A stretch of 64,000 nucleotides of DNA from Bryobacterales bacterium (GTDB lineage Bacteria; Acidobacteriota; Terriglobia; Bryobacterales; UBA6623): positions 23,327 through 87,326 of the forward strand of contig CBDCYS010000019.1 of assembly GCA_965224215.1 (NCBI GenBank), given 5' to 3'. Made by a program: the position numbers and the translations under genes. The notes below the pieces were generated by a model that made no database searches, had not been told where the DNA came from, and saw only the letters and a list, made by a program, of their open reading frames with translations. Position 1 is the stretch's first letter. The number at the start of each line of letters is the position of its first letter. This document shows positions 32,603 through 32,869 of the stretch, in pieces.

Positions 32603-32869
32603 TTTCATGGCTCGTCATCTCCTTTTTTTCTTAGTGGAAAAAACCTGGGATCGCCACCGCAGGCGGCGAAGCCCGTTTGGGGAGTTTAGCTCACTCCCCG
32701 GATGACGAGCCTCCTCATTTCATCTCTGTCGGGTCATGTGGAATTTTCTGGCGCAATTCGCTGACCCGTCACTTGCGTTCGGGGCTTCCATGAGAAGGTA
32801 GGTCGCTGTCAAGGGCAATGCTGTCGGTGAGGCGTTAGCCCGGTTGCCGGACTCTGTCCCGATCGCCGC

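Follow-up and report, generated by a model that had tools for sequence, protein, structure and literature searches.

Two transposase genes of the IS110 family, found in a stretch of 64,000 nucleotides from a Bryobacterales bacterium (the window), raise the question of why the segment directly upstream of each start codon is the complement of the inverted repeat at the left end of the same element. The initial annotation of this DNA had offered two answers: an RNA stem that blocks the translation of read-through transcripts, or a third operator bound by the recombinase. The question bears on application, as IS110/IS1111 recombinases are under development as RNA-guided genome-editing tools. To our knowledge, the ways in which the natural elements themselves limit their recombinase are partly known.

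Architecture of the two elements

The two transposase open reading frames, located on the minus strand at 29706–30908 and 34505–35764, share a protein identity of 52%, and Pfam analysis revealed that both match DEDD_Tnp_IS110 (PF01548) and Transposase_20 (PF02371) above the curated cut-offs. They belong to two elements on the minus strand, A (27351–32723) and B (32785–35853), which have the same orientation and are arranged head to tail with 61 bp between them (32723–32785), the left flank of A adjoining the right-flank hairpin of B. Element A possesses a pair of perfect 17-bp subterminal inverted repeats, the left of which (32702–32718, minus strand) sits 5 nt from its tip and the right (27356–27372, minus strand) 3–5 nt from its tip. 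The corresponding repeats of B match at 15 of 17 positions, the imperfect right copy (32790–32806, minus strand) having two positions unlike the left one.

Other insertion sequences have disrupted both window copies, whereas the left ends of A and B are intact. Element A, an IS1111-type element whose intact copies are 1.7–1.8 kb long, contains two nested insertions. An IS1380-family element with 15-bp inverted repeats (30811–32603, plus strand) sits after codon 2 of the transposase gene, the rest of which (29706–30810, minus strand) encodes the DEDD_Tnp_IS110 and Transposase_20 domains. Removal in silico of this element, together with a 3-bp TTC duplication, restores the sequence MKNNSK..., which is the N-terminus of the intact copies. 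The second insertion, 1.8 kb in length (27825–29644), lies within the 3' non-coding region; it has 19-bp inverted repeats (27832–27850 and 29595–29613) and is flanked on both sides by an unusually long direct repeat of 17 bp, CAGCAGAGGGAAAGGGG (27808–27824 and 29645–29661), whereas its long open reading frame has no match in Pfam. The transposase gene of B is cut near codon 381, where a fragment of an IS256-family (Mutator-type) transposase is located (33272–34593). Due to this fragment, the product of the window copy ends in 28 foreign residues; the intact B copies encode 410 amino acids.

A and B are members of the IS1111 group of the IS110 family. According to PMC11208160 and PMC11187229, elements of this group carry subterminal repeats, have a left end that is short and a right end that is long, and encode a guide RNA 3' of the gene. 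The subterminal repeats of A (17 bp) and B (15 of 17 positions matching) agree with the 7–17 bp typical of the group, the left end is short (~118 nt) compared to the 3' non-coding region of L025, an intact copy of A, which measures 571 nt, and insertion is site-specific, at a common core without long duplication. The 3' non-coding region of A also harbors a 27/28-nt tandem repeat (27571–27626 in the window), the copy number of which differs among the genomic copies, so that the element length varies from ~1.69 to 1.83 kb.

Target site and candidate guide RNA

The genome (8.6 Mb in 79 contigs) contains about 36 A-type and 8 B-type copies. A REP-like hairpin, GCGTGGACGGAAGTCCACGC, occurs 177 times in this genome, and an A-type element is present at 38 of these 177 sites. 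Empty sites read ...CAGAG|GCGTGGAC, and an AG is found at both junctions of the occupied ones, which together indicate that insertion takes place at an AG core. We considered the hairpin 3' of the right end as a part of the element and rejected it, because this hairpin is a REP-like repeat of the host, 139 copies of which are unoccupied. The hairpin is mostly preceded by ...CGGACAGAG. The B-type copies are placed before another conserved hairpin, CCCGGAACGCAAGTGACGGG. In the window, the flanking hairpin segments are at 27331–27350 and 32763–32784. Beyond the right flank of A, an array of six GCTGAGATGCCGCTGCCGCT-like repeats of 17–23 nt (27185–27338) is located between this flank and a gene resembling alcohol dehydrogenase (26111–27142, minus strand).

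Inspection of the 3' non-coding region of L025 revealed a cluster of 7–9-nt matches to both target strands and to the right tip, at nt 368–500 (GTCCACGCC, CAGAGGC, GGACAGA, GACAGAG and ATGGAAG). Such 7–9-nt matches are also present in the conserved 3' non-coding blocks of A (~27400–27560, minus strand) and B (~32870–33030, minus strand). Judged from these matches, the two blocks probably encode the seek/bridge RNA of the elements. A scan of 26000–37500 against Rfam at E ≤ 1 gave no match. Comparison of the left end with both strands of the target showed no match of at least 6 nt. The left end was hence rejected as a guide or bridge RNA of the kind found in the IS110 group (IS621 type), given that it lacks target complementarity and that the guide-like matches lie in the 3' region. 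In annotation, the structured left end should not be confused with the guide RNA, the probable position of which is 3' of the gene.

An 11-bp stem between the left repeat and the translation start

In element A, the 5' arm of the stem (32701–32711, minus strand; RNA GGCUCGUCAUC) is the inner half of the left subterminal repeat. The 3' arm (32609–32619, minus strand; RNA GAUGACGAGCC) lies directly 5' of the AUG, and the duplex of the two has a calculated energy of -19.7 kcal/mol. The transposase ATG is at 32606–32608 (CAT on the plus strand), and the Shine-Dalgarno (SD) sequence GGAG at 32619–32622 on the minus strand, its last G being inside the stem. Element B is organized in the same manner: the 5' arm (35830–35840, minus strand; RNA GGCUGGUCGCC) lies in the left repeat, the 3' arm (35735–35745, minus strand; RNA GGCGACCAGCC) directly precedes the AUG (ATG at 35732–35734, CAT on the plus strand), and the duplex reaches -23.8 kcal/mol. 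Here the SD sequence is GGAGG (35744–35748, minus strand), with two nucleotides inside the stem.

The complementarity reported in the initial annotation is exact in both elements. The segment 32609–32619 (GGCTCGTCATC), adjoining the ATG, is the reverse complement of 32701–32711, and the segment 35735–35745 (GGCTGGTCGCC) that of 35830–35840; the contact with the SD sequence also holds, amounting to an overlap of 1 nt with GGAG in A and of 2 nt with GGAGG in B. The further statement that the arm of B follows its left rather than its right repeat proved correct as well: the right repeat (GCGACCTACC...) is off at two positions in every B copy, and the arm matches the left repeat perfectly. By chance, a given site should have a perfect 11-nt complement no more than ~110 nt away ~2.6e-5 times per element. 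The whole 64-kb window has only 35 inverted pairs that are 11 nt or longer and at most 130 nt apart, and most of these pairs are palindromes or parts of other insertion sequences.

Conservation and covariation of the stem

Among the A-type copies of the same genome, 27 have a perfect stem, nine have one G.U pair, each arising from one C-to-U change, and one has a mismatch in addition to a G.U pair. A sub-type carrying GGAGGATGACGAGCC extends the stem to 12 bp. All six scorable B-type copies have a perfect stem.

For a wider comparison, we collected homologues with protein identities of 40–82% from further genomes within the order and the phylum; a contig search by N-terminal peptides, which are poorly conserved, found one distant locus only. 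The left tip AGATGNNATGAGNAGG is common to nearly all of these homologues. We then asked, by an unbiased search of 42 distinct left ends, which segment best complements the 16 nt that follow AGATGNNATGAGNAGG. This best complement lies 0–1 nt from an in-frame start codon in ~20 of the 42, and most of the remaining left ends have this pairing with one mismatch or a bulge. The arm sequences vary by lineage and include CTCGTCAT, TTCGTCC, CTGCCCTC, CTGGTCGC, CCGGTCTCC, CTGGTTC, CCGACCTCC and CCAACCTCC.

Covariation was assessed in a MAFFT alignment of 38 left ends that had been fitted to no structure, in which the helix corresponds to columns 17–27 with 153–163. In this helix 87.3% of the cells are paired, compared to 71.7% after shuffling (none of 500 shuffles as high), and the number of cells with a double change is 67 against 18 ± 6 in the control; these shuffle figures overstate the independence of the homologues, which are kin, although the distinct arm sequences are still many. 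Compensatory changes are found in 9 of the 11 pairs, and controls with a slid register have 20–50% of their cells paired. In an independent run of RNAalifold on the same alignment, this helix was the sole one returned. The non-Watson-Crick cells consist of ~15 G.U and ~16 C.A or A.C; as G.U is no commoner than C.A/A.C, the classic signature of selection at the RNA level is absent.

The covariation that had been claimed from two elements, namely pairing kept while the sequences differ, thus extends across the homologues. Loss of the complement in homologues, which the initial annotation had named as contrary evidence, is confined to a few lineages (L034, L036 and L067), where the pairing is largely lost; in most homologues it is kept with covariation. 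In IS1111-type elements of enterobacteria, taken from plasmids and E. coli, the pairing is shorter, comprising 6–7 bp beside the ATG (with a G.U pair in one element) and possible extra CCC:GGG pairs. The motif of the first internal hairpin, GCGGTAAGC, is common to these elements and the ones described above. We also asked how far chance, or a functionless relic of a repeat duplication, might account for the stem. The copies within one genome are near-identical by descent and by themselves would be compatible with such an origin. However, compensatory changes are kept at 40–80% protein identity in many genomes, which already contradicts it, and we regard this explanation as extremely improbable.

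The proximal arm follows the left repeat

To distinguish an RNA stem from a further copy of the terminal repeat, we compared the start-proximal arm with both repeats at the 130 positions that tell the right repeat apart from the complement of the left one. The arm agrees with the left at 102 of these positions, with the right at 17 and with neither at 11; when the four GGAG positions are left aside, the counts are 35, 8 and 1, respectively. Consistently, the mean identity over 11 positions is 9.2 between the proximal arm and the left-repeat complement, compared to 6.8 between the right repeat and the left-repeat complement, and 6.5 between the proximal arm and the right repeat. A simple copy of the repeat should resemble both repeats equally; the arm does not, which disfavors a third site in the DNA.

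The extent of the pairing points in the same direction. The repeat that is truly common to both ends consists mostly of the outer ATGAGNAGGCC(GG), whereas the fold-back engages the inner bases of the repeat and then runs onward into ...TCTCC, an anti-SD sequence that is missing from the right end. In most relatives the 3' arm is of the GGAGACCGGCC type, and the SD sequence itself is therefore within the helix; in the main A type, GGAG contributes its last G alone. The arm keeps its place at the start codon in left ends that range from 43 to ~140 nt in length, and throughout the homologues the stem covers or abuts both the SD sequence and the AUG. In the shortest left ends, of 43 nt, the left-repeat arm and GGAG form a local hairpin.

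A DNA site at this position, bound by the recombinase or by its complex with the bridge RNA and serving autoregulation or synapsis, would fit two of our observations: in A the proximal copy repeats, in direct orientation, the inner part of the right inverted repeat (ATGACGAGCC), and G.U is not enriched over C.A, as a constraint at the DNA level would give. Yet such a site would account neither for the preference for the left repeat at 102 of 130 positions, nor for an arm that runs past the repeat over GGAG, stays fixed to the start codon in left ends of any length and is reduced to an anti-SD hairpin in the shortest ones. Moreover, the sole promoter candidate lies ~110 nt upstream, at the junction. 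We consider this reading highly unlikely, and the third operator suggested in the initial annotation is disfavored by the asymmetry between left and right (102 versus 17) and by pairing that continues past the repeat and into the SD sequence. Altogether, the tracking of the left repeat and the extension over GGAG favor an RNA anti-SD stem over a third DNA site.

Predicted fold of the leader and a model for translational damping

The left end of A forms a leader of 118 nt (32606–32723, minus strand). In the predicted folds of the intact A and B leaders, the 11-bp helix closes three internal hairpins, with minimum free energies of -56.3 and -53.1 kcal/mol, respectively, and z-scores of ~-5.7 in both cases against dinucleotide shuffles. 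In 40 left ends, the SD-AUG window is predicted to be unpaired with a mean probability of 0.35 in the presence of the 5' arm, compared to 0.52 when the arm is deleted and 0.51 when it is shuffled.

We propose that the transposase mRNA contains an anti-SD strand, made up of the left subterminal repeat's inner half and a few bases beyond it. The partner of this strand would extend from the SD sequence to the base before the AUG, over 11 bp and up to 12 bp in relatives, and the resulting helix would close a multi-hairpin leader of ~105 nt. The 30S subunit would then have to open a helix worth -20 to -24 kcal/mol between the SD sequence and the AUG, by which the translation of the recombinase would be held low. 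Any transcript that contains the left end from nt 13 onward would be affected, including host read-through transcripts and, presumably, those started at the circle junction. In short, the inner half of the left repeat is likely to be an anti-SD strand that damps translation of the IS1111-type recombinase from every transcript carrying the arm. From the covarying and stable predicted helix, we infer that the stem forms in the RNA in vivo and lowers translation.

Such a role would place the left repeat under a double constraint, of DNA recognition and of RNA pairing, which helps explain why the left and right repeat copies are often imperfect. It also implies that the anti-SD strand has to be reckoned with when a recombinase is expressed from its native left end.

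Another possibility is that the left end encodes a functional structured RNA domain, in which the stem serves to close the domain and the first hairpin, with its GCGGUAAGC-type loop, binds a protein or an RNA. The domain would cooperate with either the recombinase or the 3' guide RNA and could, for instance, switch the SD sequence to an open state. The loop motif of the first hairpin is indeed kept from A and B to the enterobacterial IS1111-type elements, and the right repeat of A, if present as RNA, could prevail over the proximal arm in pairing with the left repeat (17 bp versus 11 bp). However, the left end has neither a target match of at least 6 nt nor a match in Rfam, and guide-like matches are found in the 3' non-coding region instead. 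In addition, a mini-element of ISEc11 with a left end of 50 bp moves when transposase and seekRNA are provided in trans, according to PMC11187229. We take a domain of this kind to be unlikely.

A more specific version, also with a low probability in our estimate and decidedly doubtful, is a regulated switch in which the left-repeat arm pairs either with the SD-AUG segment (11 bp, the OFF state) or with an RNA copy of the right repeat (17 bp in A). The latter could be supplied by the guide-RNA transcript, through its 3' end, or by a transcript crossing the circle junction. If such a switch exists, it would free the SD sequence and thereby make transposase synthesis depend on the circular intermediate or on the supply of guide RNA, and the conserved GCGGUAAGC-type hairpin would belong to the switch domain.

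Transcripts and a predicted circle-junction promoter

Which transcripts would carry the anti-SD stem depends on where they start. An outward -35 hexamer TTGACA is located just inside the right repeat of A (27373–27378, minus strand) and at the right end of B (32807–32812, minus strand), both reading TGTCAA on the plus strand, as the initial annotation had noticed. TTGAC(A) is found at a fixed distance from the tip in every right end examined, and this conserved -35 supports the earlier idea of a circle-junction promoter. The initial annotation had seen no good -10 at the predicted junction. When the right tip (...CATGGAAG) is joined to the left tip (ATG...), the sequence TTGACA-N18-GAAGAT is formed, with CAAGAT or N17 in some lineages; this provides a weak, conserved hybrid -10, (G/C)AAG|AT, at 17–18 nt from TTGACA. 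The final two bases of this -10 are supplied by the left end, and the integrated element reads GAAGGC at the same place. As the hybrid -10 is formed only on joining, it supports a promoter specific to the junction. A junction-specific promoter is known for ISEc11 (PMC11187229). An alternative pairing of TTGACA with TGAAAT/TAAGAT in the left tip was rejected owing to a spacing of 23 nt, and a search for sigma-70-like promoters inside the linear left ends found none.

From the position of the hybrid -10, transcription at the junction is predicted to start ~7 nt beyond it, at nt 8–10 of the left end, which is before the 5' arm that begins at nt 13. Junction transcripts should thus fold in the same way as read-through transcripts, and the stem seems to damp translation in general, instead of acting on read-through alone. 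The translation-blocking stem put forward in the initial annotation is accordingly retained as the best-supported reading, on account of the covariation, the RNAalifold result, the tracking of the left repeat and the stable predicted fold; its restriction to read-through transcripts is questionable, as junction transcripts are predicted to fold alike.

The same start site suggests that the helix might mainly be a 5'-terminal stabilizer, protecting junction transcripts against decay that depends on the 5' end, with translational damping as a side effect. A start at nt 8–10 would leave 3–5 nt unpaired before the 11-bp helix, and the leader as a whole is predicted to be unusually stable, both of which would suit such a function. 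Nevertheless, a stabilizer needs no SD-AUG partner, and yet the partner is always SD-AUG, whatever the length of the left end. We hold a primarily stabilizing role to be quite improbable, and retain translational damping as the preferred reading.

Comparison with known systems

Hiding of a transposase start within a folded leader is a familiar principle, known from IS10/IS50, IS200 and ISPpu9, and the present elements extend it to another family rather than add a new one. Fold-back inhibition of transposase translation is said to have been worked out in IS10 (Tn10), by Davis, Simons and Kleckner in 1985, and in IS50 (Tn5), by Krebs/Schulz and Reznikoff. The promoters of these two elements start downstream of the outer arm, so that read-through transcripts alone are blocked. 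An end-proximal segment complementary to the ribosome-binding site (RBS) and AUG of the transposase mRNA is present in both A and B. Similar to IS10/IS50, a sequence at the outer end is complementary to the ribosome-binding region, and a fold-back, here predicted, hides the start signals. They differ in that the junction transcript predicted here would keep the arm, and hence would not be discriminated from read-through transcripts. Moreover, the transposase is a DEDD enzyme guided by RNA, and the arm doubles as half of the subterminal inverted repeat.

In IS200, an inverted repeat at the left end sequesters the SD sequence within the 5'-UTR of tnpA and lowers both 30S binding and transposition, as demonstrated by mutation and toeprinting (PMC4513863). 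The likeness lies in a left-end pairing, predicted in our case, that sequesters the SD sequence in the transposase leader (PMC4513863). However, IS200 belongs to the unrelated HUH family, its stem is a local hairpin that does not derive from a terminal repeat, and it acts beside an antisense RNA and Hfq.

In ISPpu9, a member of the IS110 family, the RBS is masked by a structure of the 5'-UTR, which restricts translation of tnp, and the element also has the small RNAs Asr9 and Ssr9 (PMC8450116, PMC12288879). Besides the family, it shares with A and B the REP targets, an AG core dinucleotide and an RBS-hiding leader, which in A and B is predicted. By contrast, ISPpu9 is described as lacking terminal repeats, as in the IS110 group (PMC8450116, PMC12288879), its 245-nt leader is transcribed from a promoter of the element, and an antisense RNA opens up the leader structure.

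Close in layout are also the IS1111-group elements ISEc11, ISKpn4, ISPa11 and IS4321/IS5075 (PMC11187229, PMC11208160), which resemble A and B in the DEDD transposase, the subterminal inverted repeats and the short left end, as well as in the long 3' non-coding region with guide-like matches, the site-specific insertion and the right-end -35 of a junction promoter. The searched parts of these two papers contain no description of a pairing between the left repeat and the RBS, and among the papers searched we found no RBS-hiding fold-back described for IS1111-group elements.

A fold-back of similar size is also seen in the IS1380-family element, of which the window contains three copies, each with its own 11-bp pairing. 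The sequence AACCATTTGGG, ~50 nt inside the left end, is complementary to CCCAAATGGTT, which contains the ATG of the IS1380-family transposase (30950). The two arms are located at 30860–30870 and 30945–30955 in the copy inserted into A, and at 16544–16554 and 16629–16639, and 48864–48874 and 48949–48959, in the other two. By its position over the ATG, this fold-back looks like a comparable start-hiding trick in an unrelated family of insertion sequences.
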